A DNA stretch of 64,000 bases from a virus, in IMG/VR virus record IMGVR_UViG_3300031251_000003, positions 1 through 64,000 of that record; one strand, given 5' to 3'. The position numbers were made by a program, and so were the translations under genes. Positions 23,968-59,539 of the stretch are shown here, in pieces; the first letter of the stretch is position 1; every line of letters begins with the position of its first letter. The notes beneath the pieces were generated by a model. It saw only the letters and a list, made by a program, of their open reading frames with translations. It did not search any database and was not told where the DNA came from.

Positions 23968-24276
23968 ATGCGCTACAGCTTTGTGGAGTTGGAGTCTGGT
24001 GATCAAGAATATTTCGATGATGCCTACTCAGCATTTAGATTCGCCAAGGATCAAGAGCATAAGAAGAGAAACTCTGTATCATTGGTCGCTGTTGGGAAAG
24101 AGTATGACCCCGACACTATCGATGAATCTGAGTGGATTAACCTAGCAAGCGATATGACTGTCTATAGGGGTCAGATGCTTCGTCATATGATCCGCAGTTT
24201 AGACAACACAGTGGCTTGGCTAAGAACACAAATTGAAGAGCAGAGAAATGCAGCAGAAGAAGCAGGCGATTCATGA
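23968..24276 (+). CDS. hypothetical protein
   Basis: GGGAG SD. Confidence 0.65.
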   Translation: MRYSFVELESGDQEYFDDAYSAFRFAKDQEHKKRNSVSLVAVGKEYDPDTIDESEWINLASDMTVYRGQMLRHMIRSLDNTVAWLRTQIEEQRNAAEEAGDS

Positions 24277-27200
24277 AGATCTAATCAATCAGATACGAGA
24301 TAATCTCACTCCTGATTTACTAAAACCTGAGTTTCGTGACCAACCTTTCCCGGTTGGTCATTGCTATGTTAGCAGTGAAGCACTTTACCACCTACTTGGT
24401 GGCAGAGAGAGCGGCTTACGTCCAATGCGATTGCGTATGCCTGATGGTGTTGTACACTGGTGGTTGGAGACTCCCGAGGGTGAAGTAATCGATCCTACCC
24501 ATGATCAGTTCGGTGAGTCAGTCCCTTATGAGCAAGGTAAGAGCGGTGGCTTTCTAACAAGAGAGCCATCTCGTCGTGCTACGGAGCTAATGAATCGAAT
24601 TAGCTCTACTGAGTCTGATGAGCTAGCTCATAATCTCATGGACGAATTAGCCTGGGTTTCTAAAGAACGTGGTGGTCTAGATAAGTCTAACTTCTTGGGT
24701 GATGATTCTCCTGAAAGAGCAACTCCTTATGTAATTCTAAACAATCAAATGTATGTAGCTCCTAGACAATATCATTATGATCTTGCGGATTATTTAGAGA
24801 AGAAGAATGGATTTACTAGAGAACAATTGAGAGATGGCTATTGGGGATGGATTAGACCAAATGAAAATACATCTTTTGAACATTCAGATATGCTCAAGGA
24901 TAATAACTGGCATGATCCTGAGATGGTCAAGCGACTATACCCGAGTGCTATAGATATCACCAAGGCTCCGGTCGATGATGCTCCTTCCGATCCTCTAAAG
25001 GGATATGAGCAGCGTCGTAGCTCTTCCTGGAAGGAATCAGTGAATGCTCAAGGATGGATCTATGATCCGGCCACAGATAAGTTCATAACCGGTAACACAT
25101 GGCATGGTGGGCTATTAGAACAACTATTCGATAAGCCTTGGCCCTATATAGACAGAAGCGAACTAGACAAATTAGTTTATGGCTGGTTCGGACATCCGGC
25201 TAGTGGTAAAGACCCTGTAGCTATCTATTCCGATAACTTTGGATCCACTGCGACCGAAGAACAAAAACAGAGAGGATTGCAGCTAGCTAAAGAGTATTAC
25301 GAAGAAAATGCCGCTCAAAATATAGAATCTAAGGTAGCCTTCGAGACAGAACCAGATCCTCCCGATCCTGGTCATTACGTAGTGACATTCGTATACTATG
25401 CCGATGGTACACTGGAAACGGAAGTAGATCGTAGTCATGCTCACATGATCAATGAGTACATTGCACAACATGGATATGATCGTCGGGAGTTCATGTTGAA
25501 CATGATGCCCGTACTTGGATGGGTATTCTCCATAGACAACCAACTTTATGCCGTTTTCGCCTCTCAGGGATACAATGTCCAGAATAATACTCTTGAATCA
25601 GAGAGGGAAGAGACGCTAGTAGCATTGTCAAAGAGGTTCGATAAGCCTGTTCGTGAGACTGACTATCAAGAATGGATGGCTAACCAACAATGGGAAGCTA
25701 TTGTTGGTGAGTCTAGCGTTCAGAAGACGGCATTCGATCAGGCTTTCGTGTATGCTAACGATCATCTCTACGTGGCTAATAAGCCTCATCCAGCTATCAT
25801 GCGAGCTAACGGGATCGATCCAAGCACACCATTGGTAGCTGGTATCATTAAGGATACTCCAACTGGCGATGGCCCGCTCTGGATGACATTCTTCTCATGG
25901 TCACAGAACTTTGATGACCCTGAATTACAGGATCGTGCTCGTCAGGCTATAGAACATGAGTATGGTAAATTCCCCACAGAGGTAAGTTACGACGATATGG
26001 TGAAGATCGACAACGAGATCGGCCAACATCGTAATGAGATGCGTCCTCAGGCAGATAATCGTATGAATGAACGCTGGGATGACCATGAAAAAGCTTGTCC
26101 TTTCGTGTGGATGAATGGTATGGTATGGATTGGTGATGAGTTATCAGGTCATAATGGATTCGCTACAGATAGACCAGATATGTATGCCGAATGGTCAAGA
26201 CTAATGAATGAATCCGAACACACAACTTGGAGCAGGGATCAACGAGACGCTTTAATGTGGTTTGGTCGTGTCTTCCCCGATGGTGAGGTCGTAGCATGGA
26301 ATGACCAGCCGGTACCCGAAAACATACAGAATGATATTAGAAATGAAGCTCAGAAGCAAGGATTCGAGATGATGTCGGCAGCGCTTCCACACATCTATGT
26401 TGTGAATACGGGTGACAGCTACCATCAGTCTGGATTGCCCTTCATCTATGTGCCAGATAACGATGCAATTTACCTGGGCGAAACCATGGCTCCGCATATA
26501 GAGTTGATCAAGAACAATGAAGATCTCAATGGTTATGTGCGTCCTGAGGAATACACAACAGGCAACGGATACCTAGCCGGTCGAATAGATCGTAACGGTG
26601 ATGTATTGTTCTTCAACGTTCCTGGTTCGGTGTATAATCCTCAGACTGAACAGACAGTTTTGACTACACTCAAGAGTCAGTGGCCCGCGATTCAGGATCT
26701 AGATGGATTACAAGAAGAGGATGACGATCCGATCAATAACTGGCCCGGTTCTCATACATATCCAGTTCATAGTATCATCTCTAAGCTTGCTAATGAGGAA
26801 CCCGAGATCATTGTAGATCCAAGTGTGAATAATTCACATATCCCTGACTTCAATCAGATGGAAGTGATCTACATCTATGATCCGGGAACCAACAAGCTTG
26901 TCATTAGTCGTGGTCTTCATGCCGCCGCTATCCAGCAGTACTTTGGTGGGCCACGACCAGAGGATCGACAGTACGGCAACATGATAGCGGGTTACGGATC
27001 CTTGGATGCTGGTTGGGTATGTGTAACCGGCGATCTCTTGCGTAACGATTGGGTAACTGAACAGGTTGACAGAGTATTGGAGAACATAAGTTCTTCTGAT
27101 CATGTTGCCTCTGTACGGCTCATTGATATCCCTGTGACTGGACAGCAGTACGATTGGGCATGGAACAATGGTCAGCGTCCAATCCTATACCATGCACCAT

Positions 27201-30200
27201 CCGACACGCTCTACGTAGGGACACGCAATAGACACCATGGAGAGCTAATCCGTCAGATCTACAATCAAGGGCAGGCCGAGGCAGACGATTGGGATACGTT
27301 ACAGAATAACAAGGATTACCTTCTCGGCTCTGGATTGCCTTCGGGTGAAACCAAGTGGTTCACTATGAGAGATAGCGAACGCAATGCTCTGATCCCACAG
27401 GCTAACCAACAGTGGCAGGACTATTTCACTCACAGAACGGCAGAAGTTCAAGTACAAAACCCTGTGTCATACAATTACGTTCCTCTTACACCGAACGAAC
27501 TTACGGCTTTTGATTCATTGGACGAACGAAAACAAACGACATACTATCGACAGGCTCAAAGACTTAACGCTAGAGCAGAGAAAGCAGGAGTACCTGGCAA
27601 GATAAGGGGTAGAGATCTTGCGGCCCTTATGTATCGATACGATGGTCGTTGTGCTTATGATGGCACTCCTGGCGCAGATAGCTTTGATCATGTAATCCCA
27701 TTGAGCCGTGGCGGTTCTAATACAGTAGATAACCTCTTGCCTGCTCATACTCAGTGTAATGCCGAGCTAAACGATTGGGATCAGAAACTCACACCTATTC
27801 CTACAGCAATAACTCTGTCACCTGACTGGTTGAATGTACCCGCTGTAGCCAAGGTAGCTACTGTAGTTAAGGAACTGTTGTTCACTGACGATGATGTTGA
27901 CGAACGGGACGGGGACAGACATTGGGCTAAATGGTTCTACTACGCTCCAACCGATACATTGTACTGGTGGCCCACAACGAGTGAGAACGATGGTATGCCA
28001 AGTCATGCACAAGGTATTAAAGAGGCGTTCCCAGAGGAAGATTGGCTTGAGATGTGGGATTCAGGAGATCTTACCTTCGGTTACAAGACGCCAGATCAAT
28101 TATATGCATATGATTTCAATGATAGATACCCAGAGAAAGATATCCACGCTGCACAAATAGCATCAGAGTTCTTTGATATGCCCACTAATCTATCCCCAGA
28201 GAGATTCGCAAGCTCCAATAACATTCAGTTCGTTGATACCGAGGGTGGAATGTATCATGGAATGGGTTTCCCATTCCTTTACGATATTCGGGATGATATC
28301 CTCTACTTTGGTACCACTTCAACTTATCATGTACAATTGCTACAGGATATGCAAGCAAACGACCAAGATTATTACGATGATTACAAGGGGAATACTAAGC
28401 CATTGGTGGGTGGTCGCTACAATCCCGAAGAGAATCCACCAGACAGGATATATCTCTACAATTACCGCAATGATCCGATAGTATCTAATAGAATTCGTGA
28501 ATTGGTCAATGAGGCTATTCAGACTCCTGAATTTCAGCAAATCTATGAAAATGACTCCCATCATATGTCAGCTTGGAATCCTGGTGATACAGCTTGGGTA
28601 TACGATCCTGAGACAAAGCAGCTTCACTCTGGTCAATACCACGGAGAAATCATCCGTTCGATGAACCTACCGAGAGATTACAATTGGGATCAGTTTGTGT
28701 ATGGTTGGTATCCACGTACCGATGAAGAGTTTACTGACAGCTACATCGCACCTGAGTCTGTTGATCATCCTGATGAGCAGGAAGCACTCGTTGCTGCTCA
28801 AAGAGAATTCGCTAATAGAACAGCAAGGACGGCTGGTGTAGTGTATCTTGATGTACCGAGTACAGGCTTCGGTGGTATGAACCCAGAAGATACTTATCCC
28901 GCAATATATGATCCTGAGGTTGATACTTTGTATGTCGGTACTCTACCCGAGACTTCTCACGCCGAGTTGATCAGGAATAGTCCATTGGGTCACATGATGA
29001 ATGATAAGGGACACGGGTACAATATGGATCATCTAGGATTTGCATGGATCTATCCGACACAGGATCCACATGATCCTGGTTATGAGGCTGTATCATGGAC
29101 AGCAGCAATCCCGAGTAAACTATTACAAGAAGCCGTTAAAGGACTCAGAACAGGCAAGACATCTGAACGAAAGGAGGATGAAGCTCATGAACAACTACAG
29201 TTGGATACCAAGGTAGCTGAATCACAGTGGATTATGAGTGGATTCTACTGGCCCGATAACAATGCGGTTGATATATCGATGCCTGGTCAGGGTCATACTG
29301 GACTGATGGCAGAACAAGAATATACCTCCGAGTTTATGAGAAAGCAGAATTGGGTTCCGTTCCAGGTGTTCCACGATTCTCGTGACAAGTTTTACTATGT
29401 GGTCGTTGGTTCTGATTGGGTCAACGGTGGTAGTTATGATCTACCACCCGAGGGCGAAGAAGCTATCCGTGAACAGATACAGGTGAACACAGATGAACCT
29501 GTGTACTTCGAAGGAGATATGGTAACGAGCAAGGTAGCTTCTAGTGTCGAGTATGTTCATGTTCCTGAGGATCTACGTCGAGAGTGGGAACCAGATAGTA
29601 TCCGAGGAAATGCTCGTCCTTGGTTGTTAGTCAATGATACATACTATATAGGATCATTAGGAACTGGCCATGCTGAATTAGTTTATGCGGGTAATCTTCG
29701 AGATGAATCTATTGACTATAGTGACACCGGTGTTATTACAGACGCTTCTGAGCTTCTAGATATCTATGGTTATCGAAGCTATCCGATTCAAGGATCAAAG
29801 TTCTTCGTGATTCCTTTCAATGATGAAGCCCTAGCAGAAGAGTTAGCCCGACTTATGATTGACCACACAGATGAGATGATCAAGAGCACCAAGACCGCAT
29901 TACAAAATCATATTCCAAATCCCGGTTACACCGAATGGGATTCTCGTGCTGGTCGTTATGCTTGGGTTCTTCTATCTGATGGTCGAATCCTCTTTAGCAA
30001 GGAGGGTGGAAGTCATCAGTCTATTGCTGTTGATCATGAATTTGGTCGAGAATACGATTCATTTGGAAAGGGAACTACTTATGGTCAATTATTCGACAAG
30101 AATGGAGAAATTGAGGTTGAGATATTTACATTCACAGGCGGCGGGAGTAATCAGCCACCTGAAGAAATTAAGGAGAAAGTCAAAGCAGCATTCATGGATC

Positions 30201-33200
30201 ACAAGGACGACTCGTGGTATGGTAAAGTAGCTATGCCAGGTGGAGGCTATTGTTATCTCTGTTACAATGATCCAAAGATAAAGAATAAGCAAGGTATGCA
30301 TCCCGTCACTCATTGGGATTGGGTCATCGATGAACTTCACCCAGATCCTAAGCCGTCTCAGATCGGTCTATGTGATATGCATCACTGGATTCTACAGACC
30401 GAAGGTATCGATGGGTGGAAGCAGATCTTCCCTCTACGTAGACAGCCTGTTATGTCGAGCACTATCGTTGAGGTTCGCACATTAGGTAGTGCCGAGGAAG
30501 ATGTAGCTGATTCGCGGCCTATCATCTACGATCCAGAGACTGACACAATCTACATCGGCGGATATGGTGGCTATCATAGCGAACTAATGGATAGTGAAGA
30601 GATGGGCGGCAAGAACTGGCGAGGTATGGCCTTTGGTAGATTCTCTGGGTTTGATCATTTCAAGTGGTACATGAATCAGGATAGAATTCCTGATCTAGCT
30701 AACGTTGAGGAACAGATCCAGGCAGAGGCTCGTGTTCATTCTAATCTAGCGGAACAAATGGGATGGACGATTGAGGATTTAGGGCCAAGCGACCATAGCC
30801 ACGAATTACTACAATGGGATGTCGATCAAGACAGACTGGCTTGGGTCGCAGATCTAACTACCAAAACGATCTATATCGGTGAAGGTTGGATGCACCGGGA
30901 GATCTTCAAGCGAATGCTTAACATGAATATTGAACACGCCGGTGATATGAGTTTCAGCGGACTTGATGTGGATGATATCGCCGCTGGTTCCACAATGGAA
31001 GACGATCCTTCTAAGATGGAGTTCTATGAATGGGGAAAGAATTGGGATCAGTATGAACTCAATGAATTACGTGAGATCCTTCAAGATTACATAACTGATG
31101 ATCATATCAAGACAGCCGTGGAATTAGACAAGACTGAAGCTGGATGGCCCTCTGGATATGAGTGGTACACTAGCTGGTTGTATGTTCCCGATACTGGTCA
31201 GCTACTCATTAAGAACAAGCGTGATGTCAATCACACTATGTTGATTGTAGAAGAACCACAGTTAATGCAGGAGATTCGCGAAGGAGTGGAGATTGTACCT
31301 GGCTTGATTCTTAAAAACAATCATAATCAGTATGGGATACTATCGATGTACTCGGATAAATGGGATGGAAGTAATATCTTACATCCTGGGGCCAATGAGG
31401 AAGCAGTCAAGGCTGTTCAGGATTGGGCAGCAGCGAATACTCATTGGGGTGATTTACCTGTCGTAAACACCGAGGATTCACGCATTAGCTCATTCAATCA
31501 TATCAACTATGTCAATGTACCAGAATTCAATTACCACGGTGATGGAGTCCCCTGGATTCTATTGAATAATGGTGATATCTACATGGCTACCGAATCATGT
31601 TTTCACAGAGAATTGATTTGGGCAATAGACCCAGATGATAACTATAAAAATATAAGTTCAAATATAGCAGCGGCTGGTCGTGTAGAGAATGGGGTAGTGA
31701 AGACCTATTGGGGGCCGGATAGAGCCAATGTAAGTAATGAGGTATTACGTGCGCTCAAAGAAGGAGCATTGAATGAAGATGAACGAGGTAAGATAGCTAC
31801 AGTGGTAGATGACTTGAGTAGTCAATTCCCGGCGTCGGCATCAGAAGCTGAAGAACCATGGTCATACTGGAAGTATATTTATGACAATGATACAGATACC
31901 CTGCACGTATGGAAAACCAAGTATGAGGATGGTGATCCTATACATGCGGCAGCCTTCCGTGAGATCTTTGGCCCGGATACTTACAATCATAATTTCAGAA
32001 ATAGTGAAGCACGCTTTGCATGGGGGCATGGTTATGAAAATGGTTATGAGCTTTATGGTCATCACAGTACTCCCGATGTAAACGCTCATGCTGAAGCAGC
32101 CCTAGCTTACTTCATCAATAGTTTTCAGCAAGAGACTAGCAAGACGGCTGGTGAGTATACTCCCATGGTCAAGGGTATCCGTGGTCGATGGATCTTACTC
32201 CACGATGGAACTGTGTTGAGTGACGATGATCCAGGGACGATACACGCTCAGATTCTATTAGACAATGGAGCAACACCGGATCAGATAAAGGATATTGGAT
32301 TCGATGATGTCAGTCTGCGGAAGTACATTGATAACTATTACACATTCTATAACAATGTAAAGCAGGATCAAGAGCGCCAGCGTAATAGCTCAACTGATCA
32401 GTGGGACAACATCCAGCCTGTCGATGATTCTTGTTACCTCGTTGCTGCTGATCTCTCTCATGAGTACCCAGAATTGCATTATGAAGCTGGTCAATATGGT
32501 GATCAGGGCGAACATGCGTGGCTACGAATGGATGATGGAACAATCATTGATCCTACTCACGGTCAGTATGATGAGAGCAAGCCGATGAATATTGTCAAGC
32601 CCAATGATCCAGCCCAGAAACTGTATAAGTCGTGGGCTACTAATCCTAACATGACTACTGATTGGAATAATTACCCAGAAGAGTTTATGGATGATCCCGA
32701 TGATCCATTACACTGGTTATTTAGAGGAAAGCCAGGTCATCCTCATTCTGGCCCCGATGAGTTTGATGGAGCAATGGCTCCCAAGACGGCAGGCTGGGAA
32801 CAACAGCAGCTTAACCCCGACGCTCAGTATATATGGGTAAGAGGTAATAAAACCACAGTAGCGGCACCAACATGGTACTCTCATGGCTCATTGATCCAGT
32901 GGCTTCGAGATCATAATGAAGAACCATTATCCACGGGCAATATGTCATTGGGTAAGGACTTACCCGCTAATACTGTCGTGCTTCTATGGGAGGATGATGA
33001 GACAGGTGATAAATACTCAAAGGCAAGCTCAACTGTCACGGTACGAGATGATCCTCATCCCAAGAGCTTTATCTGGACATACGATGTGAACAAGGATCAT
33101 TTCACGGTAGGCAATCGTGACTGGTATCACACACGCTACTGGCCATCTACTGATGGTGGTGTAGTGTGCGGTGGTGTGAATCCCGATGGAGTGTGGAGCT

Positions 33201-36200
33201 ATGATGACTCCACCAATAAGACTACACCATCCGAAGCGAAAGCATTGATGCAGAATCTATTGGATCAAGGACTTCAAGAACAACTAACCAACAAAACGAG
33301 CGCTGTGGTTCCCAATCCTACAGAACCGTGGAATGATCCAGCATGGTTGAAGCAATGGCAGGATAGAGAGGACGAAGGAGGATTCTATGGTGATCATCGT
33401 GAGATCGCTAATCCTTATATCCCGTTCTTGGTCATGGAAGATGGCAGAACCTGGATAGGCTGGGACTATGCTTCACATGCATATGAATGGATGGTCGATG
33501 AAGCAGAAGAAGAGTTGAATATTGATTACAATGCAATGAAGGATTCACAAGGATCTATCAACTTCGCGGATCAAGAGTATGAAGTTCACTGGCCCAATCA
33601 TGGATTGCATAGAGAGCTAGAACAACAGATCGTAACCGAGATAGTCAATGATGTAGAGGATGAACGCAAGCGGGCATTCGAACGGGGTAGATTGGATGAC
33701 AAGACAGCATGGGTAAAGACGGCGACACGAGTGGACGTATCTAATCCCGAGGATCTAACACAATGGCGCTGTGGTTTATGGGTATACGATGAGAAACAGG
33801 ATCACTTGGTCTTGGCCCCGTATTTCTCACACTATCCGTTTCATGCCAAGCTGATCCGAGACTACATGTGGGACTTCGAACCCAATGATCGAGACTATGA
33901 GGCTCTAGTAGCTGGACAATGGTGGCTCAGAAACAACGACTTGGTTGTGGCCGAAATATACCCGGATGATAATGAAATTGAAGGGCCAATGAAAGATATG
34001 ATCGAGGGCTACATTAGTGAACATCTACAGACAGAGACAACGGCTGGATTGAATGGTGATCTACCCGACAACCTGCGGAACATTCCTTTAACAGAGAACG
34101 AAGGATGGTGGGGAACATACATCACCGATGTACCCGTGAGTACCGATAGACTGAGTAGAGATGTACTAACGACTTCCCCCACTCCACTCTCCAGACGTGA
34201 TGAGCAACTGACTCACAGGAATTCGGCATATATAAACACACATGAAAGTCAAGGCTTGACATACACTTCAAGTTATGCATCGGATCCAACAACCCCGCAT
34301 GAATACACAAGTAATATAACATCTGCCCTAGGGCTAGACACCATGCGGCACACTAACACCCCTATAGGCAAGTACCCCCACCAAGGTTGCCCCTCTAGGG
34401 TACCCCCGTGGCATAAAAGAGAGTACCTTTCCGCAAATGGAGAGGTTCCAGAGGTCGAGGACACAGGGGCAAGAACCGCAAGTGATACCCCTTGGTGGGT
34501 AGTGGCAGAGCCAGGGGAGGAACCGAACCAAATAGCATGGGTGGCGGATCTGAACACAAGAACGGTCTATGTAGGCGAATGGCATGGAGAGATCTTCAAG
34601 TCCCTCATGGGCCTCAACTACGATCACACAACGGATGAACAAGCGGAAGAAACACCCAATCTTGCCACGGGAAGAAGCTGGACACAGTTCTACGGAACCG
34701 AAATGAGCAGGGAACAAATAAAAGAGATGCTTCAAGCCATCCACGATTACTACGAACAAAGAGCCTACCATTTTTCTACAGATATTTTCCCCAGGGTTGA
34801 GGACATCCAGGCTTCCCCTAACAGCAAGTTAACGGCTCTATTCGAGGATATCAACGGTACGACGGCCTTTGCATGGAGTCCCGAACAACTCATTCAGGGC
34901 CACAATCATCGTTTCATTATCATGAAGATCCGAGATCAGGGGCTGGATCCCAATGACTTCACCTACGGATGGAAGAATGGAGATCACTTCTATATCCATT
35001 CATGGGATCATCAGGACTTCCAGGCCGAACATCAGATACTTGAGTGCAAGAAGGCTTTAGAGGCGATGGGACTCCACGATGAGGATGGGCCTTCCTTCCA
35101 GGACACTGGTAAGGTCACCGGTACACTTGAGCAACAGATTCACCCAGGTTGGGGAGGACAATCGCTTATCTATTTCCGGGGAAAACAGTATAGCGCCCCG
35201 ACTCATGCCCAGAATTTCAGAAAGCTTATTGGCGATGGAGCCTCATCGGAAGAGATCCTCCATGAAGGTATCCCCGGTGCCCGTTACTTGGATCCAGGTG
35301 CACAGAGACGTATAGGGAAAGTGGCGGCAATAAACGAAATTCCAGTAGAAACAGCGGGGATGCATCCATGGGGAGATGAACCCTTTATCTACTATGCACC
35401 GACCAATACTGTGTATGTTGCAACAAAATCGGGAAGGCATGGAGACATCATGCGCTGGATACAGGATCACGACCCGGAAACGTTCGCCCTGATTACCGAT
35501 AGGAGCACGGGATTGGACGCTTTCAAGAATATCTTCTATGGAGAATTCGTTCCTTTACATGAATGGAGGGGAGAAGTGGAGTCCGGGGAGATAGATTACT
35601 TCACCGCGAGCGGTTCAAGGTTGACATCCGATGAGGTACCGGAGGAACTCAAGCAATGGGCCGAAGCCCGTTGGGGCAATGTCACATCCAAAGTAATAGA
35701 GTCTCATCCGAGTCTCCATATCGTGGACGTAGATAACTACAGTAGTAGGATTGAAGGGCTTGAGCGTCCTGTATTACAACGGGAAGGCGATTCTAATCTC
35801 TATGTTGGACTGTATGGTGGAGGGCATTGGGATCTAGCTAGTGTCGCTGGTATTCCTTTTGATAATATTTTAACACAAGGATGGATCGATGAAAGTGGAG
35901 AGTTTAACGCTTATTCGATAACCACAGAGGCTTACGATACACTGGAAAATGCAGGATATAACCCAGTCAGTAAAAATTGGGAAAGAACAATCGAAGATAA
36001 AGTAGAGTCTCATTTATCGGGTATCCAACTCACCCAACCCAATGAACCAAGGGATATTGATAATCCCGGTGTTAGGTGGATAAAGACCCAGGATGGAACC
36101 TACTACACCGATGAAGAGGAACCGGTCATGACTCATGCCCATCTAGTTCACCGCTACAAGATTCCCTTGGATAAGATAGTCGATGTAGGCGTGGACGATG

Positions 36201-40233: not shown

Positions 40234-40417
40234 TATACACGACATTTTAGTTCGCCGTGGTGCTCACTTTGCAAATCCAGAGGACTGGTGGTATTGGGCC
40301 GGATGGCTCGATGTTCTCTATGGTAAATGTACAATCAATTACCCAAAGCAACTATCCTACGCCAGGGCATATGAAATGGGTATGGCTGATGCTAAAGGTG
40401 AATTATGTATAACTTAG
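40214..40417 (+). CDS. small YxxGYxDG-repeat (RMF-like) family protein
   Basis: YWAGWLD...YEMGMADAKGE. Confidence 0.7.
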   Translation: MRVSGYNIHDILVRRGAHFANPEDWWYWAGWLDVLYGKCTINYPKQLSYARAYEMGMADAKGELCIT

Positions 40418-45546: not shown

Positions 45547-45724
45547 AGTACCAGACATTCTGGCTCAGGATACTAGATCTTATCATTATGCGGTAGGCTA
45601 TTCTTGGGGTTATGGGAATGACCATACTTCTGAGATGTTGGTAAGCTACTTACAGACAGCAACTAAAGATTGGTTAATGGGTTACGCAGATGGGAAGGGG
45701 GATCGTGAAAACTCCCAATTTTAA
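45539..45724 (+). CDS. small YxxGYxDG-repeat (RMF-like) family protein
   Basis: YAVGYSWGYG...WLMGYADGKGDRE. Confidence 0.7.
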   Translation: MSKVPDILAQDTRSYHYAVGYSWGYGNDHTSEMLVSYLQTATKDWLMGYADGKGDRENSQF

Positions 45725-45896
45725 CCTAGATTACTATTGGACAGTCAAAGGAGATTTCTATTCGACTAGTTACGTTGCAGGATATATGAGGGGTCGTTGG
45801 GACTGCGCACTTCCTGATGAAATTGAACCGCTGATACATAGTCCTTTTGGAGTGATGGGTCTTGCCGATGGACGTGGAGATAAAGAATATGACTAG
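45705..45896 (+). CDS. small YxxGYxDG-repeat (RMF-like) family protein
   Basis: YVAGYMRGRWD...VMGLADGRGDKE. Confidence 0.65.
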   Translation: MKTPNFNLDYYWTVKGDFYSTSYVAGYMRGRWDCALPDEIEPLIHSPFGVMGLADGRGDKEYD

Positions 45897-49614: not shown

Positions 49615-49866
49615 ATGAAGAAGCAGCACAAGGAGTCTAAATGGTGGAGAGCTTGTCCATCTTGTCATCAATTAGTCTATACAACAGGGTTTGGAATAGG
49701 GAACCATGCTTGTCCTCCCAAGGCTGTAGCGAAGCGAGATGCTGAGCTAGATATGGTTGTTGAGGAAGAACTCTCCACTTGGAATGCTGACCTAGAAAGG
49801 TTTTGGAATTCTTCGGATGTAAAATTTATGGAATATATAATTCAGGAAAAGAAAGATGGCAATTAA
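49615..49866 (+). CDS. hypothetical protein (CxxC...HxC)
   Basis: Adjacent start. Confidence 0.6.
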   Translation: MKKQHKESKWWRACPSCHQLVYTTGFGIGNHACPPKAVAKRDAELDMVVEEELSTWNADLERFWNSSDVKFMEYIIQEKKDGN

Positions 49867-52522: not shown

Positions 52523-55045
52523 ATGACACAGTTTGCATACGGGCAGCTTGAGAGCGCCTATCTTAATGTTAAGGAAGCAGCAAATGAACCATGGAGAGGA
52601 ATCACAGCTTGGGTTCAGGGAATGCCTTATCTCATCATCGACAAGAACGGTGAGAGTTTCGTATTAGAGGGCGAAGATGGTAACACCATCGAGCTAGAAA
52701 GATTTGAGAGTTGGGAACCCGCGACTGACGAGAGTAGTCTAGTCGCAGCAAGTCGTCTTGAAGGTTCTCCGTTTACTCGTGGAGTGAAGGTCGGTACGTT
52801 CACCGTAGGAAACCTTGTTTACTTTGAAAAAGAGTGGCAGGTTCGTGTGGGCGATACTGGTTTTACATTGCCACTTGAGAGATTAGTATCCAGATATGAT
52901 CAGGCACGGTGGGACAAGAGCGCCGATCTAATGCCCGCAATGGATTATCATTGCCCTGAATGCAAATCTCAAGACGTTATCCCTGATGCGGGAATGATGG
53001 TCTGTAAAGATTGTGGTTACTCTGGCCCAGAACAAGACTTTGAAAATGAACAACCTGATTATGATCCCACATTCGATGATCGAGCATGGTACGAAGATTG
53101 GAGTGGCCCGGAAGATCACGATGGTTACACTACTTCGGTAAAGCAGGCAGACTTTGAAGACGAACATCTATCACCTTCAGTACCTACGGGTGACGGTGGA
53201 GAGAACTGGAACACATTCGAGTACAATCTCCCGCCTCATGGTATCCACTTCAGAACCCACGCAGCTATGCAGGCCGCAAACATGCAGGCTAGAGTCCATT
53301 ATCCTCCTGGGGTAACAGATCATCATCCTGAAGGATTCACTAGCACCGTTCCTGGCCCTACGGCTATGGACGATATGATGATCCCAATGGATTATACGAT
53401 GAAGCACGGTGGTAGTCCTGAGGATATCGTTGTTCAGGTCGAGACTCCTAATGATCCAGAGCAGGTAAGACAGCTTATGGATCAGGTTGGTGGCCGTAGG
53501 AGTGCTAAAACAGCGGAAGTTGAAGAACCGATGAACGATCCTACCGTCGATACCCAGAAGGGATTGAAGTGCCCGAAGTGTGGATCCCATACTTTGCGAG
53601 CTTATTCACCCGAAGGTAACGAGGCAACTATCGTATGTCTGACTTGTGGTAATGAGTTCAAGAGAGACGTTCATTTTAATCCACAGTCATCCGTACGTCA
53701 GGCAACAATGCCCGTAGATCCTAACCTACACGCTCAGATTCTAGGACTCACTCAGCAGATACAGCAGGCTTATGAGCAGGGGAATACATCCCTGGCTCAG
53801 CAGTTGAATGCACAGCTTCAGCAGTTGCTCAATAACCCCAACGCGCCTATCAATCCTAATCAGTCTGTCATGACTTCTGGATGGAAGGTTGCTAATCAGT
53901 GGATTAGAAAGCGAGGGGATCAATGGTGCATCATTCAGAAGGGCACGGGTAAGGAACTATCTTGCCACGACTCCGAAGAGAAAGCTAACGCATCCTTCCG
54001 TGCTATGGAAATGCATAAGCATATGGGCGGTGAGTTCAAACCGGGTTGCTCTTGTGGTGGTAACTGTGGTTGTGGCAAAGGTGACAAGAAAACAGCAGTA
54101 GTCGATAATAGTCAATTGACTGACACTACTGAGAGGTTCTTCCTCGAATCTATGACTTTTGAAGCGACTGGTTTAGAAGAAGGAGATCGCTCAATTTGTC
54201 CGAGATGCAATGGACAATTAGCTCTTGATCCTTCTAGTCAGACTTTGAAGTGTCAGAATTGTGGTTATAATGGTGGCCCTTCGGGACAAAGGAATATGGA
54301 TTATGGCCCATTGAATCACACACAAATTCAGAGTTGGTACGATGGTGCCGATGATCCGTATCCTCCTGGCCCGGATCAAGTGAATCTAGATGACTATCAG
54401 GCCGAAGATCCTCAGGACTTCGATGATCGCAACATCGACTTCGCTCATTGCCCTGCTTGTGATGGCCCTGGTGTATTACTAGGCCAGCTTGGTTCTAGAA
54501 TTCATTACCGATGTCGTAACTGTGGTGTAGATTTTAGCCACAACACCGAGGGTAGTGATCATCAGACTCCTGGATTCACTAACGAAGCACCAGATCAATC
54601 ACCTGGAACCACCTACATGGGTAGTTACGAGGAAGTCAAAGAGGTTAACCAGAACACTCTAAAGGCATTCAAAGACTCAAGTGGAAATCCTTTGGAAGCT
54701 GGGAGACTCTACGTGCTCCATCATCCAGAATACAAGGTTCCCGATATTGTAAAGATCCTTAATCTAGAGGACAATCGTATCGAGGCAGCCATTGCATCGG
54801 ATGAGCATGGTTCATTCCCAATTCATATTACGCATGATGATGTTTTCACCCTAGATCCTTACGAGGATAAGAAGACGAGTAGCTGGAAGATCTCCCGCAA
54901 CAACATCAGTGCTCAGGAACAGGAAGACTTGATCAAAGAGAACATGGAAGGTAAGGCTCGCAACTTTGACAAGTTGAATCTAAGCAACACTCACTACCAA
55001 GTGAAAGAAGAATCAACTGATCCTTATTTCCTCCTAGGTATTTAA
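52523..55045 (+). CDS. head-associated multidomain protein with four zinc ribbons
   Basis: CPEC/CKDC, CPKC/CLTC, CPRC/CQNC, CPAC/CRNC; IRKRGDQWCI...CHDSEEKA; C-terminal EQEDLIKE...ARNFDKLNLSNTHY; K/R-x-A linkers. Confidence 0.75.
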   Translation: MTQFAYGQLESAYLNVKEAANEPWRGITAWVQGMPYLIIDKNGESFVLEGEDGNTIELERFESWEPATDESSLVAASRLEGSPFTRGVKVGTFTVGNLVYFEKEWQVRVGDTGFTLPLERLVSRYDQARWDKSADLMPAMDYHCPECKSQDVIPDAGMMVCKDCGYSGPEQDFENEQPDYDPTFDDRAWYEDWSGPEDHDGYTTSVKQADFEDEHLSPSVPTGDGGENWNTFEYNLPPHGIHFRTHAAMQAANMQARVHYPPGVTDHHPEGFTSTVPGPTAMDDMMIPMDYTMKHGGSPEDIVVQVETPNDPEQVRQLMDQVGGRRSAKTAEVEEPMNDPTVDTQKGLKCPKCGSHTLRAYSPEGNEATIVCLTCGNEFKRDVHFNPQSSVRQATMPVDPNLHAQILGLTQQIQQAYEQGNTSLAQQLNAQLQQLLNNPNAPINPNQSVMTSGWKVANQWIRKRGDQWCIIQKGTGKELSCHDSEEKANASFRAMEMHKHMGGEFKPGCSCGGNCGCGKGDKKTAVVDNSQLTDTTERFFLESMTFEATGLEEGDRSICPRCNGQLALDPSSQTLKCQNCGYNGGPSGQRNMDYGPLNHTQIQSWYDGADDPYPPGPDQVNLDDYQAEDPQDFDDRNIDFAHCPACDGPGVLLGQLGSRIHYRCRNCGVDFSHNTEGSDHQTPGFTNEAPDQSPGTTYMGSYEEVKEVNQNTLKAFKDSSGNPLEAGRLYVLHHPEYKVPDIVKILNLEDNRIEAAIASDEHGSFPIHITHDDVFTLDPYEDKKTSSWKISRNNISAQEQEDLIKENMEGKARNFDKLNLSNTHYQVKEESTDPYFLLGI

Positions 55046-57016: not shown

Positions 57017-57018
57017 GT

Positions 57019-57294
57019 ATGGAAGCTCTGGAAGCCAGAGAGATTGCTATTAGAGAATTGAACAGTTTGAGGGGAAGACTCTGCACGGTCATTGAATCGG
57101 CAGGGCTTCCCCAAAAACAAGAGAGAGCGATAGTTACATTGATCAAAAATGCTAGCTACCAGTCTCAAGCAGTGATTAGCGAGCTATTAGAAAAGCTCGA
57201 CAGTGGAGATATCAAATTCACTTACACAGAAAAATTGGATGGCCCATTAAATGATAACGAAATACGCGAACCTCGAACGTATATTAGAAGTTAG
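57019..57294 (+). CDS. hypothetical helical protein
   Basis: GGAG SD. Confidence 0.65.
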   Translation: MEALEAREIAIRELNSLRGRLCTVIESAGLPQKQERAIVTLIKNASYQSQAVISELLEKLDSGDIKFTYTEKLDGPLNDNEIREPRTYIRS

Positions 57295-59539
57295 AAGCAG
57301 TAAGAGCCGATTAGGTTTTACCGAATCTGAATCTGATAACCAGCGATTTGCAAAGTTCGCTGGATTGAATAAGGGAATTCGTGAAGAGGATGGTTATCTC
57401 TACGTTAGATGTCGGGCTATCTCATCTCGTGTAAACAAGAACAACGACGGATGGCCGTCCGAAGAACTATCGAAGTCGTATAAGACCTTTGAGAATCGTC
57501 CTATCTTTGTCGATCACAATAATGACAATCCGAATAGGACTCGTGGGATCATTGTAGCATCCGATCTACACGTAGAAGACAAGGAGAAGGTGTCTGCACT
57601 TGACCAGTATTACTCAAGTGCTCCTGATAACCATCTACCTCCTACTTGGATCGAATTACTTCTAGAAGTAGATGCTAAAACATTCCCGAAGTTGGCCAAG
57701 GCTGTCAAGGAGAAGCGAGTAGATGCTGTGTCGATGGGTGCTAATATCGATACGAGTATTTGTTCTGTATGTGCCCATGAAGCAGCTACTCCTTCGGAGT
57801 ATTGTTCTCACGTAAAGAAGAAGGGATCTACCTTCGAGATTACATCCGACAATGGAGAGAAGGTACACAAAAAAGCATACGAAGATTGTTATGGGATTAA
57901 CTTCTTTGAAATCTCATTCGTCTTCGATCCGGCTGATCCTACCGCTGACGTTCTAGACAAGCAGGCCACAACTAAATCTAGTTCTGAAGAATGTGAGCAC
58001 TGTAGCCATTCTAAATATGATCATCAAGACGGAAGAGGCCCCTGTGAAGAGGCAGGCTGCCACTGTGAAAGATTCAGTGAGTCCCGAGAATCTAGTTTTC
58101 AATTGGCAGAAATGGTGGGTCAAACTCTTTCACCTGAGCGTCTAGCTCAACTAAAGCAGTCTATTCCTTCAGCAGAGCAGTTCATGGCACCGAAGGGACA
58201 AGGACAGAATGATCAACCGAAGAATCGTAACTACATTCCTCAAGAAGATCTAGTAACTGCACCCCAGCATGTGGATACACTTCGCAACGATGAAGTGTGT
58301 CCAGTTTGTCATGCTTCCGAAATGGAAACAGGGGCAGATGGAATTATGACGTGCCCTATTTGTGGTCACGTACAAGAACCAGAACCTCTTAATAACCCTG
58401 ATCTTTCCTTAGCTCAAGACAATCAATTGCGCGAAGATCAGGCACAACCAGGCCAGCCTGTCACTCCTGTCAATGCAGATCCATTGGATGCTGTTGAATT
58501 CGATCATGAACAAAGTCAGATAAGCCAGCCTACTAGTACTACTAAAAGAAAGTATACTCCAAAGGGAATAAGTGATAACGCTATGTTTGAAACCAAATTA
58601 CGAACCACATCAAAAGAGGAAGCTGATAAGATGTTACCCGCAAAGGTAGCTCGAATCGAAACCAAATTAGGTAGTGGTATCCATCGTGGAATTTATGACG
58701 CTGCTCGTGAGGCTGGACTTAAGGTTAAGGTTGCTTATCCTGCGGTTAAATCATCCTCTGAAAATACAGTTGAAGTCCCTGGCGACAACGGAATCTTCAA
58801 CTTGTTTTATGCAGAAGAGTCTGCGATGAATCTAAATGTACCGATGAAGGATGTGCCTGTAGTAATTGAGGCCGCTTCAGAGAAGGATGCTCAGGCATTC
58901 TTGAAGATTTTGACTGAGACTGCATTACCGACTCGGAAGGTTCGTGCTGGTAATGACAAGCAGCCAATTCTACCGGGATCCAAGCCGACCGATGAGCCTA
59001 AGAAGGAGAAGATCATCTCTAATCCGACTCAGCCCGTCGAGGCAGCACTCAAGGAAGCTATTGAGCTTTCTGATGGTGTAGTTGAGATCGATGGTAATAA
59101 GTACAAGTTGAATCTAGTCACTGACGAGGTTGAGGACGATGAGGTCAAGGAAGTAGAGGCCGACGAGTCCAAGGAAGATGAGAAGGAAGATACCTCCAAG
59201 GAAGTAGAGGATACCAAGGAAGAAGAGAAGGATGACGAAGACCGCGAAAGCCGACTGTTGGCAGCATTCAAGCTTGCTGATATGTCAGTCGAGATGGGAC
59301 TAGTTACTCCTGAAAACAAGATGACATTGATTGCTGAACTTGAAGATGAAAATCTGGGTCAGCTAGATGTTCGTGAGAAGACTTTGATCGCTGTAAAGAA
59401 TGCTGGTCTATCCAAGCGCACAGCATCATCGGTACATGGCATTAAGCGAGTTCCAAGATTAAGTCACGCTGTTCCAGCGCTAAATGGCAGTACGAGTACG
59501 CCGAAGGAAGATGTCCCCTTAGAGGCGCTTTTCCTCTAA
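57251..59539 (+). CDS. prohead (capsid maturation) protease fused to scaffold region
   Basis: RAISSRVNKNNDG, IFVDHNN (His), AVSMG (Ser), CSVC..YCSH, FFEISFVFDPADPTA; acidic coiled C-terminus; directly upstream of capsid genes. Confidence 0.85.
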   Translation: MITKYANLERILEVRSSKSRLGFTESESDNQRFAKFAGLNKGIREEDGYLYVRCRAISSRVNKNNDGWPSEELSKSYKTFENRPIFVDHNNDNPNRTRGIIVASDLHVEDKEKVSALDQYYSSAPDNHLPPTWIELLLEVDAKTFPKLAKAVKEKRVDAVSMGANIDTSICSVCAHEAATPSEYCSHVKKKGSTFEITSDNGEKVHKKAYEDCYGINFFEISFVFDPADPTADVLDKQATTKSSSEECEHCSHSKYDHQDGRGPCEEAGCHCERFSESRESSFQLAEMVGQTLSPERLAQLKQSIPSAEQFMAPKGQGQNDQPKNRNYIPQEDLVTAPQHVDTLRNDEVCPVCHASEMETGADGIMTCPICGHVQEPEPLNNPDLSLAQDNQLREDQAQPGQPVTPVNADPLDAVEFDHEQSQISQPTSTTKRKYTPKGISDNAMFETKLRTTSKEEADKMLPAKVARIETKLGSGIHRGIYDAAREAGLKVKVAYPAVKSSSENTVEVPGDNGIFNLFYAEESAMNLNVPMKDVPVVIEAASEKDAQAFLKILTETALPTRKVRAGNDKQPILPGSKPTDEPKKEKIISNPTQPVEAALKEAIELSDGVVEIDGNKYKLNLVTDEVEDDEVKEVEADESKEDEKEDTSKEVEDTKEEEKDDEDRESRLLAAFKLADMSVEMGLVTPENKMTLIAELEDENLGQLDVREKTLIAVKNAGLSKRTASSVHGIKRVPRLSHAVPALNGSTSTPKEDVPLEALFL

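Follow-up and report, generated by a model that had tools for sequence, protein, structure and literature searches.

What marks the joints of a 4,717-residue protein encoded by an uncultured 158-kb phage, and could those joints be cut? In the window (the whole stretch of DNA that was analysed, 64,000 nucleotides), the first-pass annotation had noticed short basic-x-small peptides at the protein's module boundaries, and it had proposed that a prohead protease recognizes them as a K/R-x-A/G/S code and thereby releases polyprotein head cargo. Every peptide that it listed is found in the sequence. Taking sequence, structural models and analogy together, we see about an even chance that the motif is the cleavage motif of the prohead protease and that the giant is packaged in the head as a polyvalent protein and cleaved at no fewer than 20 linkers.

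A linker motif in the giant protein

The giant and its recognizable domains are as follows.

24233..38386, + strand, giant modular protein (4717 aa from TTG 24233; 4712 aa from ATG 24248, the database start)
24332..24544, + strand, N-terminal YunG-like domain (Pfam PF24585, E 1.1e-5, 26 bits versus a cut-off of 27; Atlas 0.96)
27650..27766, + strand, HNH endonuclease domain (residues 1140-1178; PF01844, E 3.7e-6)
32396..32587, + strand, second, weaker YunG-like domain (E 0.053, a lead only)

The protein also contains at least 24 copies of a His-containing module of ~105 aa, for which a comparison with known folds gave no match. Across the three known giants (that of this phage and its homologs, P0004 and the G001 giant), the best-conserved region is the N-terminal YunG-like domain, with 65-70% identity and a Cys/His/Asp pattern.

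How strong is the motif itself? As originally written it is too loose, with [KR]-x-[AGS] barely enriched in the giant open reading frame (93 versus 74.6 expected from shuffles; z 2.4), but it contains a real core: [KR]-x-A occurs 41 times versus 24.4 expected (z 3.4), and K-[VT]-A occurs 15 times versus 1.1 (z 13.4). The reversed control A-[VT]-K (3 versus 1.2) and the control K-[VT]-non-AGS (13 versus 15.5) are flat, and K-[VT]-A reaches a density of 3.2 per 1000 aa in the giant, whereas the proteins encoded beyond 24-61 kb (36,094 aa) have 0.5 per 1000. In the giant linkers, the residues rank K 35, R 14, and H 10 at P3 and T 32, V 15, L 9, and I 3 at P2. Since 23 linker sites comprise 19 different 9-mers, selection acts on the protein and not on the DNA.

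The sites along the giant are listed below.

25331..25339, + strand, K-V-A 367-369; aligns with R-T-A in the G001 giant
25724..25732, + strand, K-T-A 498-500; P0004 ortholog K-L-G
26783..26791, + strand, K-L-A 851-853; P0004 ortholog K-V-A
27101..27109, + strand, H-V-A 957-959; module core 22 aa downstream
27434..27442, + strand, R-T-A 1068-1070; aligns with H-T-A in P0004
27851..27859, + strand, K-V-A 1207-1209; linker site
28817..28834, + strand, double R-T-A-R-T-A 1529-1534; directly precedes strand 1 in the module model
29210..29218, + strand, K-V-A 1660-1662; low-confidence tail following the modelled module
29531..29539, + strand, K-V-A 1767-1769; linker site
29891..29899, + strand, K-T-A 1887-1889; linker site
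30224..30232, + strand, K-V-A 1998-2000; linker site
31109..31117, + strand, K-T-A 2293-2295; aligns with H-T-A in P0004 and K-T-A in G001
31790..31798, + strand, K-I-A 2520-2522; linker site
32141..32149, + strand, K-T-A 2637-2639; aligns with R-T-A in G001
32783..32791, + strand, K-T-A 2851-2853; linker site
33701..33724, + strand, twin K-T-A 3157-3159 and K-T-A 3162-3164; orthologous P0004 module ends K-T-A
34472..34480, + strand, R-T-A 3414-3416; linker site
35318..35326, + strand, K-V-A 3696-3698; aligns with R-V-A in G001
36269..36277, + strand, K-T-A 4013-4015 (in E-S-H-K-T-A); aligns with K-T-A and H-T-A in P0004
38006..38014, + strand, R-L-A 4592-4594; precedes the last module; P0004 ortholog K-T-A

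The predicted enrichment at boundaries over interiors is borne out with [KR][VTIL]A. Thirteen of 24 such sites lie 15-27 aa upstream of a module core, a 13-aa zone that was chosen after the distances had been seen and that makes up 6.6% of the giant (P 5.8e-10); only 3 of the 24 fall inside modules, whose interiors account for 50% of the protein (P 1.3e-4). Boundary placement is repeated in the two homologous giants (P 4e-4 and P 7e-3), whose orthologous modules retain a site at both ends despite a shuffled module order. In a structural model of one module (pTM 0.69), R-T-A-R-T-A stops one residue ahead of strand 1, and the next K-V-A falls in the low-confidence tail past helix 2. The RLA/RVA within R-L-A-W-V-A-D was rejected as a linker, as it belongs to the module core.

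Could the motif simply be inherited with the module? This is argued against by the bracketing of unrelated domains: the HNH domain is flanked by R-T-A 1068-1070 and K-V-A 1207-1209; in P0004, a cREC_REC domain (1995-2086) lies between H-T-A 1991-1993 and K-T-A 2091-2093; and in G005, a complete relative, the CCA-adding enzyme forms part of a 1236-aa YunG-led fusion protein in which K-V-A directly precedes the enzyme domain. A YunG-like domain of the giant is bracketed as well, the second one, by K-T-A 2637-2639 and K-T-A 2851-2853. The statement that most boundaries carry the motif is nonetheless too strong: there are ~21-23 good sites for 24 HMM-detected modules, but about half of the module junctions are without a strict site, and some stretches, residues 4016-4537 among them, contain several modules and zero strict sites. 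The junctions without a strict site count against the polyprotein reading.

The same profile in the prohead protease

If the linkers are to be cut, which enzyme would do so? The candidate that had been named is indeed a prohead protease/scaffold protein.

57251..59539, + strand, prohead protease with scaffold-like tail (PHROG 18299 head maturation protease, E 5.8e-19)

Its protease domain (residues ~5-227) is followed by a tail with a zinc ribbon, an HPr-like domain, and C-terminal helices. The fold is that of T4 gp21 and herpesvirus assemblin, with structural matches to T4 gp21 (136 residues at rmsd 2.5 A, Z 11.6) and to herpesvirus proteases (Z 5-6.3), and His89 and Ser161 are invariant among 57 homologs.

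The signature was also said to occur in this protein, and here the evidence is divided. [KR]-x-A is enriched (15 versus 7.5 expected; z 2.8), but 10 of the 15 copies lie within folded elements. The 5 that are accessible in the AlphaFold model sit at the N terminus (K-Y-A 4-6), directly past the protease domain (K-Q-A 237-239), ahead of the HPr-like domain (K-V-A 465-467), within a disordered part of the tail (K-E-A 601-603), and past the C-terminal helices (R-T-A 723-725). Conserved copies in helices (K-F-A 35, K-L-A 147, K-L-A 674) mean that structural conservation accounts for some of the excess across the family; KLA147 and KLA674 were rejected as linkers for their location in helices, which with the module-core case makes at least three listed or similar peptides that are no linkers.

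The wider family sharpens the profile. All seven related IMG/VR protease-scaffold proteins carry 4-5 K[VT]A versus ~0.7 expected, at aligned domain junctions. Among 124 diverse homologs, the scaffold tails (median, 5 sites per tail) contain KTA 163 times versus 25.5 expected, which places it fourth among over-represented tripeptides. Enrichment in these tails is 4.65x for K, 4.04x for R, and 1.84x for H at P3; 5.4x for T, 3.4x for V, 3.2x for L, and 2.9x for I at P2; and 4.37x for Ala at P1, with the reversed motif at 1.04x. This is the degenerate profile of the giant's linkers (P3 K>R>H, P2 T>V>L>I, P1 Ala), as would be anticipated were one protease to process both proteins. What survives of the shared code is [KR(H)]-[TV(LI)]-A, 4.4-fold enriched in the tails, whereas G or S at P1 is unsupported (in the scaffolds, Gly is depleted to 0.42x and Ser is neutral).

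Neighboring proteins and a proposed cargo pathway

Of the neighbors listed here, the 716-, 993-, 746-, and 840-aa proteins had been assigned the same signature.

38386..40233, + strand, CCA-adding tRNA nucleotidyltransferase, 615 aa, one N-terminal His-type module; its start overlaps the stop of the giant
43396..45546, + strand, 716-aa protein, one His-type module, HExxH motif
44125-44133, + strand, candidate variant site K-V-G of the 716-aa protein; aligns with K-T-A in the G001 ortholog
46633..49614, + strand, 993-aa protein, SWIM zinc finger; related to the gp92-type protease neighbor in Bxz1-like phages
47320-47328, + strand, candidate site K-V-G of the 993-aa protein; aligns with R-V-A in a related-phage ortholog
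48850-48858, + strand, candidate site R-T-A of the 993-aa protein
48868-48876, + strand, candidate site K-L-A of the 993-aa protein; aligns with K-T-A in a related-phage ortholog
49856..52096, + strand, 746-aa protein, PEP-utilizers mobile domain and C-terminal His-type module
52523..55045, + strand, 840-aa multi-zinc-ribbon protein, strict K-T-A 329, K-V-A 455, K-T-A 523
59603..60157, + strand, capsid cement/decoration protein (Pfam PF23968, E 7.9e-19)
60171..61139, + strand, major capsid protein, 322 aa (PHROG 2522, E 4.8e-85; PDB 6wkk match)

The assignment holds in part. Strict sites are in excess in the 840-aa protein (3 versus 0.2 expected) and in the 746-aa protein (2, both K-V-A, versus 0.2), where at least one (239-241, in a conserved block) may be structural, but several of the sites listed for these four proteins are no more frequent than chance, and many of those listed for the four and for the protease reflect chance or structure. 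A search of the 716- and 993-aa proteins found no strict K-[VT]-A; in alignments, their K-V-G/K-V-S variants correspond to K-T-A or R-V-A of related-phage orthologs. The CCA enzyme and the 716-, 993-, and 746-aa proteins, through shared modules, and the 840-aa protein, through shared strict sites, probably form one cargo set with the giant.

We posit that [K/R (sometimes H)]-[T/V (sometimes L/I)]-Ala would be the recognition motif of the prohead serine protease, with cleavage presumably after the Ala, and that the protease would use such sites to release itself and dismantle the scaffold during head maturation. The giant carries the motif in exposed linkers between modules, HNH, and YunG-like domains and would thereby be a substrate. 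In this model, it would become part of the prohead as a single chain and probably be cut in place at ~20 linkers, and its fragments (~11-60 kDa) would remain in the capsid and exit with the DNA. Cleavage of the motif, the enzyme responsible, the giant's entry into the head, and the action of the pieces in the host are all steps that we infer. The dozens of small effectors once envisaged do not follow, as strict sites would give ~20 fragments and the recognizable domains besides the His modules are only the HNH and two YunG-like domains. With a net charge of -395 the giant is extremely acidic, which sits uneasily with packing alongside DNA and counts against head packaging. A further point against is that, with the genome read as circular, ~66 kb separate the portal and protease genes, so that the term "head gene block" applies only loosely. 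In the major capsid protein, the N-terminal candidate sites R-K-A 6-8 and K-L-A 17-19 are not conserved in 3 of 8 relatives, which counts against the cleavage-motif reading.

Comparison with other phages

In T4 and phiKZ, the prohead protease processes many internal head proteins. Such processing at short motifs is documented for prohead proteases, with SPN3US gp245 cleaving after A-X-E (PMC10052503). In the high-GC, Bxz1-like phage Cali, an Arg version of the motif discussed here, R-[VTIL]-A, occurs in gp92 and gp93 (z 2.6 each). Separately, phage Mx1 has a YunG-led multidomain protein among nucleotide-metabolism genes, a setting that counts against the head-cargo reading.

An experimental comparison is offered by phage G. 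Its gp19 is in the same protease family (32% identity, E 1e-31), and K-I-A, K-T-A, and K-V-A surround the protease domain of gp19. The phage G capsid protein is processed from a 282-aa precursor to 255 aa, as established by N-terminal sequencing (PMC5646251), which places the cut after G-R-V-A-L-A27, in agreement with the mass. This single sequenced site in the family matches the motif here in its P1 Ala and aliphatic P2, but P3 is Ala and not Lys/Arg; an R-V-A is located two residues upstream of the cut. The sequenced cleavage point aligns with R-I-G 51-53 of the capsid protein in our phage. The concept of polyprotein head cargo is not wholly new: it is preceded by the processing of internal head proteins and by the proposal of head-packaged multidomain "polyvalent proteins," possibly released by proteolysis (PMC5512222).

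Motif and modules of the giant protein

The 64 kb considered here open a 158,106-bp IMG/VR virus record that CheckV rates complete, and they contain the following elements:

24233-38386, + strand: the giant, a modular protein of 4,717 aa (the database version begins at the ATG at 24248)
38386-40233, + strand: a CCA-adding tRNA nucleotidyltransferase, whose start overlaps the stop of the giant, with one N-terminal His-type module (the repeated, ~105-aa His-containing domain of the giant)
Between the giant and the capsid genes, + strand, as the giant: proteins of 716 aa (43396-45546), 993 aa, 746 aa (49856-52096) and 840 aa
Same region, + strand: two tail-fibre-like proteins
57251-59539, + strand: the 762-aa protease-scaffold (a prohead protease domain plus a scaffold-like tail), then a cement protein and the major capsid protein

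On the strand that it shares with the genes for the protease, cement and capsid proteins, the giant precedes them by 19 kb; the portal (149 kb) and the large terminase (144 kb) both fall within 144-151 kb of the record. The closest capsid and 762-aa proteins are those of Bxz1-like (cluster C) mycobacteriophages, Rhodococcus phage E3 and Gordonia phages, and the order protease-scaffold, cement protein, capsid protein is common to seven relatives, Cali and phage G. Scattered among the large genes are at least six small ORFs (61-97 aa; 40214-41067, 42723-42980 and 45539-45896), which encode a family of tiny paralogs that have in common a W-[WY]-W-x-G-W ... Y-x-x-G-x-x-D-x-x-G-type pattern. In the 746-aa protein, a PEP-utilizers mobile (i.e., swivelling phosphohistidine) domain (E 1.2e-13) adjoins a C-terminal His-type module.

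A first-pass annotation of this DNA had read a basic-x-small tripeptide, [KR]-x-[AGS], as a maturation-cleavage code at the module boundaries of the giant and in several neighbouring proteins, and every peptide that it quoted is present in the sequence. Motif counts were compared with 300-500 shuffles per protein at several stringencies, as tabulated here for the giant.

Motif counts in the giant
Motif; observed; expected; outcome
K-[VT]-A (strict motif); 15; 1.1; z 13.4
[KR]-x-A; 41; 24.4; z 3.4
[KR]-x-[AGS] (first-pass definition); 93; 74.6; z 2.4
A-[VT]-K (reversed control); 3; 1.2; flat
K-[VT]-non-A/G/S (control); 13; 15.5; flat

What stands out in the giant is a well-defined motif, [K/R, sometimes H]-[T/V, sometimes L/I]-Ala, into which the wider definition mixes noise. 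The original observation is strong in the giant and mixed in the other proteins, and [KR]-x-[AGS] proved too loose; we dropped it as the working motif on account of its low z in the giant and because, in scaffolds, Gly is depleted and Ser neutral at the last position. The strict motif occurs 3.2 times per 1000 aa in the giant versus 0.5 times in the genome outside 24-61 kb. In the linkers of the giants, P3 is K (35), R (14) or H (10) and P2 is T (32), V (15), L (9) or I (3); P4 is preferentially Ser, and P1' tends to be small. Nineteen different 9-mers encode the 23 good sites, which argues that the constraint acts on the protein and not on the DNA. Near the N terminus, where a capsid-targeting propeptide might be removed, K-Q-A is found at residues 10-12 of the giant (5-7 from the ATG), and a third giant, encoded by the related phage G001, has K-L-A at 19-21; the homologous giant P0004 has no N-terminal site, and a proteome-wide look for short N-terminal K-x-A tags found them in 8 of 162 proteins only, with no pattern.

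Where do these sites fall? A module HMM, iterated from one repeat, describes a ~38-aa core (aromatic-I-Y-x-P-x-x-D-x-L-Y-V-G-x5-H-x-E-L-I) and finds 24 cores in the giant, 23 in P0004 (4,516 aa) and 17 in the 3,504-aa ORF of G001. Thirteen of the 24 [KR][VTIL]A sites of the giant lie 15-27 aa before a core, in a zone that makes up 6.6% of the protein (P 5.8e-10); the zone was set after the distances had been seen, and we judge the effect far larger than that freedom could create. Module interiors, which account for 50% of the giant, contain only 3 of the 24 sites (P 1.3e-4). This comparison of boundaries with interiors, which the first-pass annotation had suggested for its own motif, came out positive on both sides for [KR][VTIL]A, and the placement is repeated in the giants P0004 and G001 (P 4e-4 and 7e-3, respectively). 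That the sites are enriched before cores and avoid interiors is upheld; that most boundaries carry one was too strong a statement, as about half of the junctions are without a strict site. Three matches to R-[LV]-A-W-V-A-D were rejected as linkers, being part of the module core.

In an AlphaFold model of residues 1523-1672 (alignment of 41 paralogous modules, pTM 0.69), the module is compact and is predicted to comprise strand 1, two strands, a helix that begins with the sole invariant His, a further pair of strands and helix 2. In this model, R-T-A-R-T-A ends one residue ahead of strand 1, and the next K-V-A is in a low-confidence tail. The best hit of a wide VIA search with the fold was a phosphohistidine phosphatase at Z 4.4, which is not meaningful, and BFVD gave no match at E <= 0.001; as modelled, the repeated module is without a known fold match in these collections. 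Sequence comparison of the module returned only sub-threshold fungal matches in Atlas and a chance-level DUF2283 word in Pfam. A word-based search for further whole giants found P0004 only, a search for shorter forms of the giant found none, a single module used as query found no stand-alone modules, and the best-conserved module had no match among viral and metagenome contigs.

The motif beyond the repeat

The modules are paralogous, and a boundary sequence could have been copied along with them; the broad [KR]-x-[AGS], moreover, is close to chance. Is the tripeptide then without function, left over from tandem duplication or singled out by eye from chance matches? The motif is not merely copied along with the repeat, because it brackets unrelated domains, survives module shuffling, and has variants in neighbouring proteins that align with canonical sites. 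An HNH domain of the giant (residues 1140-1178) is bracketed by R-T-A 1070 and K-V-A 1207, and its second YunG-like domain by K-T-A 2639 and K-T-A 2851. In P0004, a complete cREC_REC domain (1995-2086; a weak GNAT match is present besides) sits between H-T-A 1993 and K-T-A 2091. In the related complete genome G005, K-V-A stands just ahead of the CCA-enzyme domain, which is there fused into a 1,236-aa YunG-led protein. Several unrelated effector-type domains are found on one polypeptide, namely, HNH, two YunG-like domains and His modules in the giant, and a YunG-like domain with the CCA enzyme in G005. The CCA-adding enzyme itself follows directly after the giant in the window and is the C-terminal domain of a multidomain protein in G005.

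The three giants have common modules in shuffled order, and orthologous modules keep the site at both ends with conservative changes only (K-T-S/K-T-A, R-L-A/K-T-A, K-L-A/K-V-A, K-T-A/K-L-G and K-T-A/H-T-A). Likewise, K-V-G of the 716-aa protein aligns with K-T-A of its G001 ortholog, and K-V-G and K-L-A of the 993-aa protein align with R-V-A and K-T-A of the G001 orthologs. The tripeptide persists although the modules are 6-25% identical to the reference module and share a single invariant His; codons differ between sites; and the motif flanks nonparalogous domains and occurs in unrelated proteins and phages. Given also the strict count and its flat controls, the tests run here disfavour a relic or chance pattern, and we consider it very improbable.

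The prohead protease family and its scaffolds

The 762-aa protein matches PHROG 18299, "head maturation protease" (E 5.8e-19), with no Pfam family even at E <= 10 and no match to the PDB by sequence. Residues 5-227 are modelled by AlphaFold at pLDDT >90, and the model superposes on T4 gp21 (5jbl_B) with Z 11.6 and an rmsd of 2.5 A over 136 residues (VIA-align); T4 gp21 is also the top Foldseek match, and the pseudorabies virus and HCMV proteases follow at Z 5-6.3. As modelled, then, the protease domain has an assemblin-type fold (T4 gp21 / HK97 gp4 / herpesvirus assemblin), and the candidate catalytic residues His89 and Ser161 are invariant in 57 homologs. The tail consists of a zinc ribbon, an HPr-like domain, an acidic disordered stretch and C-terminal helices. 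The four-Cys zinc ribbon (58298-58363; Cys350, 353, 368 and 371, invariant in 57 homologs) and the confidently modelled HPr-like domain (58646-58924, residues 466-558; Z 8, 75 residues) are both unusual for a scaffolding protein.

The motif recurs in this protein and throughout its family. All seven related IMG/VR protease-scaffold homologs have 4-5 K[VT]A (~0.7 expected), and these lie at aligned junctions in otherwise unalignable sequence: an N-terminal T-K-[YF]-A, the end of the protease domain, mid-scaffold, and before the C-terminal tail. A HMMER scan with the protease family gave 2,314 cluster representatives, and tripeptides were counted in the tails of the 124 proteins of at least 600 aa among the 150 best homologs. 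KTA occurs 163 times in these tails versus 25.5 expected and is the fourth most over-represented tripeptide, ranking behind only zinc-ribbon words and one conserved T-W-S; RTA, KLA and RVA are among the top 30. The tails have a median of 5 motif sites each.

Enrichment at motif positions in the 124 tails
P3: K 4.65x, R 4.04x, H 1.84x; all others <= 1.45x
P2: T 5.4x, V 3.4x, L 3.2x, I 2.9x; helix formers near 1x; P, G and D depleted
P1: A 4.37x, G 0.42x, S 1.2x
Reversed motif: 1.04x

The linkers of the giants and the scaffold tails rank residues alike at P3, P2 and P1, and the beta-branched P2 argues against a helical low-complexity artefact. The link between motif and protease, which the first-pass annotation had proposed, is well supported by computation; cleavage of the motif, packaging, ejection and an effector function of the giant are what we infer beyond it.

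It could be that the motif is a conserved but uncleaved linker feature (i.e., a docking or encapsidation tag for scaffold or protease, or a cap between helix 2 and strand 1) and that the giant works as one chain. Virion RNA polymerases of the N4 type are indeed packaged without cleavage (PMC5512222). In the protease-scaffold of the window, K-F-A 35, K-L-A 147 and K-L-A 674 lie in helices, so part of the family motif excess is structural, and probably so for such copies in conserved helices. The other sites of this protein (K-Y-A 4-6, K-Q-A 237-239, K-V-A 465-467, K-E-A 601-603 and R-T-A 723-725) lie outside folded elements. Against an uncleaved linker stand the bracketing of unrelated folds, the position of the motif in low-confidence or disordered segments, the tolerance of only K/R/H - T/V/L/I - A exchanges, which is a typical protease subsite profile, the several copies per scaffold in otherwise unalignable sequence, and the capsid protein of a family member, which is cut after x-L-A. 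On balance, we think an uncleaved linker unlikely.

The capsid protein in question is gp27 of phage G, to which the capsid protein of the window is matched in the PDB (6wkk). Phage G gp19 is a protease of the same family (32% identity, E 1e-31; a Bxz1-like homolog is 43% identical), with K-I-A, K-T-A and K-I-A before the protease domain and K-V-A and K-I-A after it, and the scaffold-like gp21 has two K-T-A. In high-GC Cali, the Arg form of the motif is found in gp92 and gp93. These four proteins, Cali gp92 and gp93 and phage G gp19 and gp21, are annotated as hypothetical proteins only. Hua et al. give gp27 as a precursor of 282 aa and, by N-terminal sequencing, a mature form of 255 aa (PMC5646251). 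These lengths place the cut after G-R-V-A-L-A27, and the computed mass of 28.17 kDa agrees with their 28.2 kDa. The gp27 cut supports P1 Ala and an aliphatic P2 for the protease family and does not support a basic P3; R-V-A lies two residues upstream of it. In the capsid protein of the window, the N-terminal R-K-A and K-L-A are absent from three of eight relatives and are equivocal as an independent check. An invariant R-I-G of this protein (residues 51-53, 60321-60329) aligns with A-L-A27 of phage G, so the maturation cut here may remove about 53 residues rather than fall at the motif-predicted K-L-A 17-19. The literature searched contained neither a published cleavage consensus for this protease family nor virion N termini of Bxz1-like phages.

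Could the linkers be cut by another peptidase? If so, head packaging would no longer follow. Candidates are the YunG-like domain (by self-processing, as RNA-virus polyproteins do), the 716-aa protein, a papain-family protein at 3164-4087 or a host enzyme. The YunG-like domain (24332-24544) leads all three giants and the G005 fusion, is the most conserved part of the giants, and has a Cys/His/Asp pattern by inspection of the translation; autoproteolysis of polyvalent proteins has, moreover, already been proposed (PMC5512222). With 26.0 bits against Pfam PF24585 (E 1.1e-5), the domain falls below the cut-off of 27, and we therefore call it YunG-like and not a YunG member; its Atlas feature score to YunG clusters is 0.96. 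A weaker second copy is present in the giant at 32396-32587. A literature search for "YunG" returned surnames only, and no peptidase family matched the giant. The 716-aa protein contains a zincin-like HExxH motif, W-H-E-I-Q-H, at residues ~455-470, after its one His-type module, with no family match for the motif. Papain-type enzymes favour a hydrophobic P2, and the phage encodes such a protein, matching Peptidase_C1 (E 6e-8) and bearing K-T-A at residues 44-46.

Several observations speak against these candidates. The motif is enriched in protease-scaffolds of the whole 2,314-cluster family, including those of Bxz1-like mycobacteriophages, which gave no YunG-like match at E <= 1e-3. At 19 of 20 other viral loci, the YunG-like sequence occupies a short open frame (about 100-215 aa) that leaves it no substrate in cis, and in phage Mx1, where it heads a 1479-aa protein with a NUDIX hydrolase annotation, that protein has no motif excess. 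The C1-like protein resembles actinophage lysins: in Arthrobacter and Gordonia phages, the annotation of its relatives reads cysteine protease or lysin, with matches in Streptomyces phages as well, and it is probably, by this resemblance, a lysis enzyme. It does not travel with the protease family, being found in 2 Mycobacterium phage records versus 209 with the prohead protease. We regard cutting by another peptidase as improbable.

A candidate polyprotein cargo and its relation to known systems

We tentatively favour, as a real possibility, a reading in which a tailed dsDNA phage uses polyprotein logic for injected cargo, with [K/R]-[T/V]-Ala as the specificity of its prohead protease family. 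In this model, one 530-kDa chain would be loaded into the prohead, and the capsid-maturation protease would cut it at 20 or more [K/R]-[T/V]-Ala linkers. The predicted products are a fixed-ratio set of small folded proteins, i.e., the His-containing fold of the modules, a nuclease and YunG-like domains, which would enter the host along with the DNA. The tripeptide would then define a specificity not described before, for a protease family that numbers over 2,300 sequence clusters and includes Bxz1-like mycobacteriophages and phage G.

The motif might instead be cleaved and the giant incorporated as an assembly component (a core, ballast or a scaffold that sets size), its acidic pieces then being expelled or filling the head and not serving as effectors. 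The scaffolding core protein gp22 of T4 is degraded and expelled, and the giant, with a net charge of -395, resembles such cores. Its repeated module matches no known fold or enzyme, and the motif has its clearest home in the scaffold. However, relatives that share this protease and capsid protein do not conserve the giant, the complete genome G005 having only the 1236-aa version. The HNH, cREC_REC and GNAT-type domains and the companion CCA-adding enzyme are typical of conflict or takeover proteins and not of scaffolds, and folded 12-kDa domains would hardly be able to exit a closed shell. An assembly component thus seems to us rather unlikely.

If the polyprotein reading is correct, a large and poorly annotated phage head protease family, whose cluster C genes are now listed as "hypothetical protein," would gain a cleavage consensus, and mature virion proteins, propeptides and head cargo would become predictable from sequence in hundreds of phages. 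Polyprotein processing, a strategy usually associated with RNA viruses, would turn out to supply many proteins at a fixed ratio by way of a phage head, and the cutting of polyvalent proteins into working parts would gain a concrete mechanism, i.e., a defined tripeptide and a defined enzyme. The protease motif is testable in culturable relatives such as phage G and the Bxz1-like phages.

How does this proposal compare with head processing as it is known? The prohead proteases of T4 (gp21) and phiKZ (gp175) process many internal head proteins, and T4 gp21 cuts after L/I-x-E. For gp245 of the phiKZ-like phage SPN3US, 14 sites cut after A-X-E have been mapped in 9 proteins (PMC10052503). The uncultured phage described here would share with these systems a serine protease of gp21/assemblin fold in capsid maturation, one short motif across scaffold, protease and a candidate packaged nonstructural protein, multiple predicted cuts per substrate and predicted cargo that leaves with the DNA. 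In contrast to them, its predicted motif has P1 Ala and a basic P3 ([KR]-[TV]-A) and not P1 Glu, and it is spread over one 4,717-aa chain with ~20 regularly placed junction sites, whereas each known substrate is a protein of its own and, in most cases, is trimmed of an N-terminal propeptide.

Herpesvirus assemblin cuts (V/L/I)-X-A↓S at its R and M sites. The fold class, the protease-scaffold fusion, a predicted self-release, P1 Ala and a favoured small P1' are common to assemblin and the phage protease. The latter differs in having its aliphatic or beta-branched preference at P2 and its basic one at P3, in being a phage enzyme, and in the zinc ribbon and HPr-like domain of its tail; we know of no polyprotein cargo for assemblin.

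Iyer et al. (2017) defined the polyvalent proteins of phages and conjugative elements, predicted their packaging in the head and proposed self-cleavage by an embedded zincin (MPTase) (PMC5512222). Like these, the giants are very large, string together unrelated conflict-type domains (HNH; cREC_REC and GNAT in P0004), shuffle domains rapidly between relatives and are predicted to be packaged, injected and released by proteolysis. Their paper defines no linker motif (PMC5512222); here, a tripeptide marks the junctions and points to a separate prohead protease. Polyvalent proteins typically have 2-15 different domains, whereas the giant is mostly at least 24 copies of one His-containing module.

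With the polyproteins of positive-strand RNA viruses and retroviruses, the proposed system has in common a long product, a short junction consensus, a virus-encoded protease and, if cleavage occurs as predicted, fixed-ratio products. It differs in that the protease is a separate gene product that would act inside a capsid precursor, in the dsDNA genome with its gene-by-gene expression, and in products that would be cargo and not replication or structural proteins. Phage G and the Bxz1-like phages have homologous protease, cement and capsid proteins and the motif around the protease domain and in scaffold-like neighbours; unlike the phage of the window, the Bxz1-like mycobacteriophages are without a YunG-like match, and their protease is annotated as a hypothetical protein. 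Relative to known head processing and to polyvalent proteins, what differs here is the motif, with P1 Ala as in assemblin, and its apparent use as a regular junction code on one 4,717-aa chain, which points to the separate head protease.
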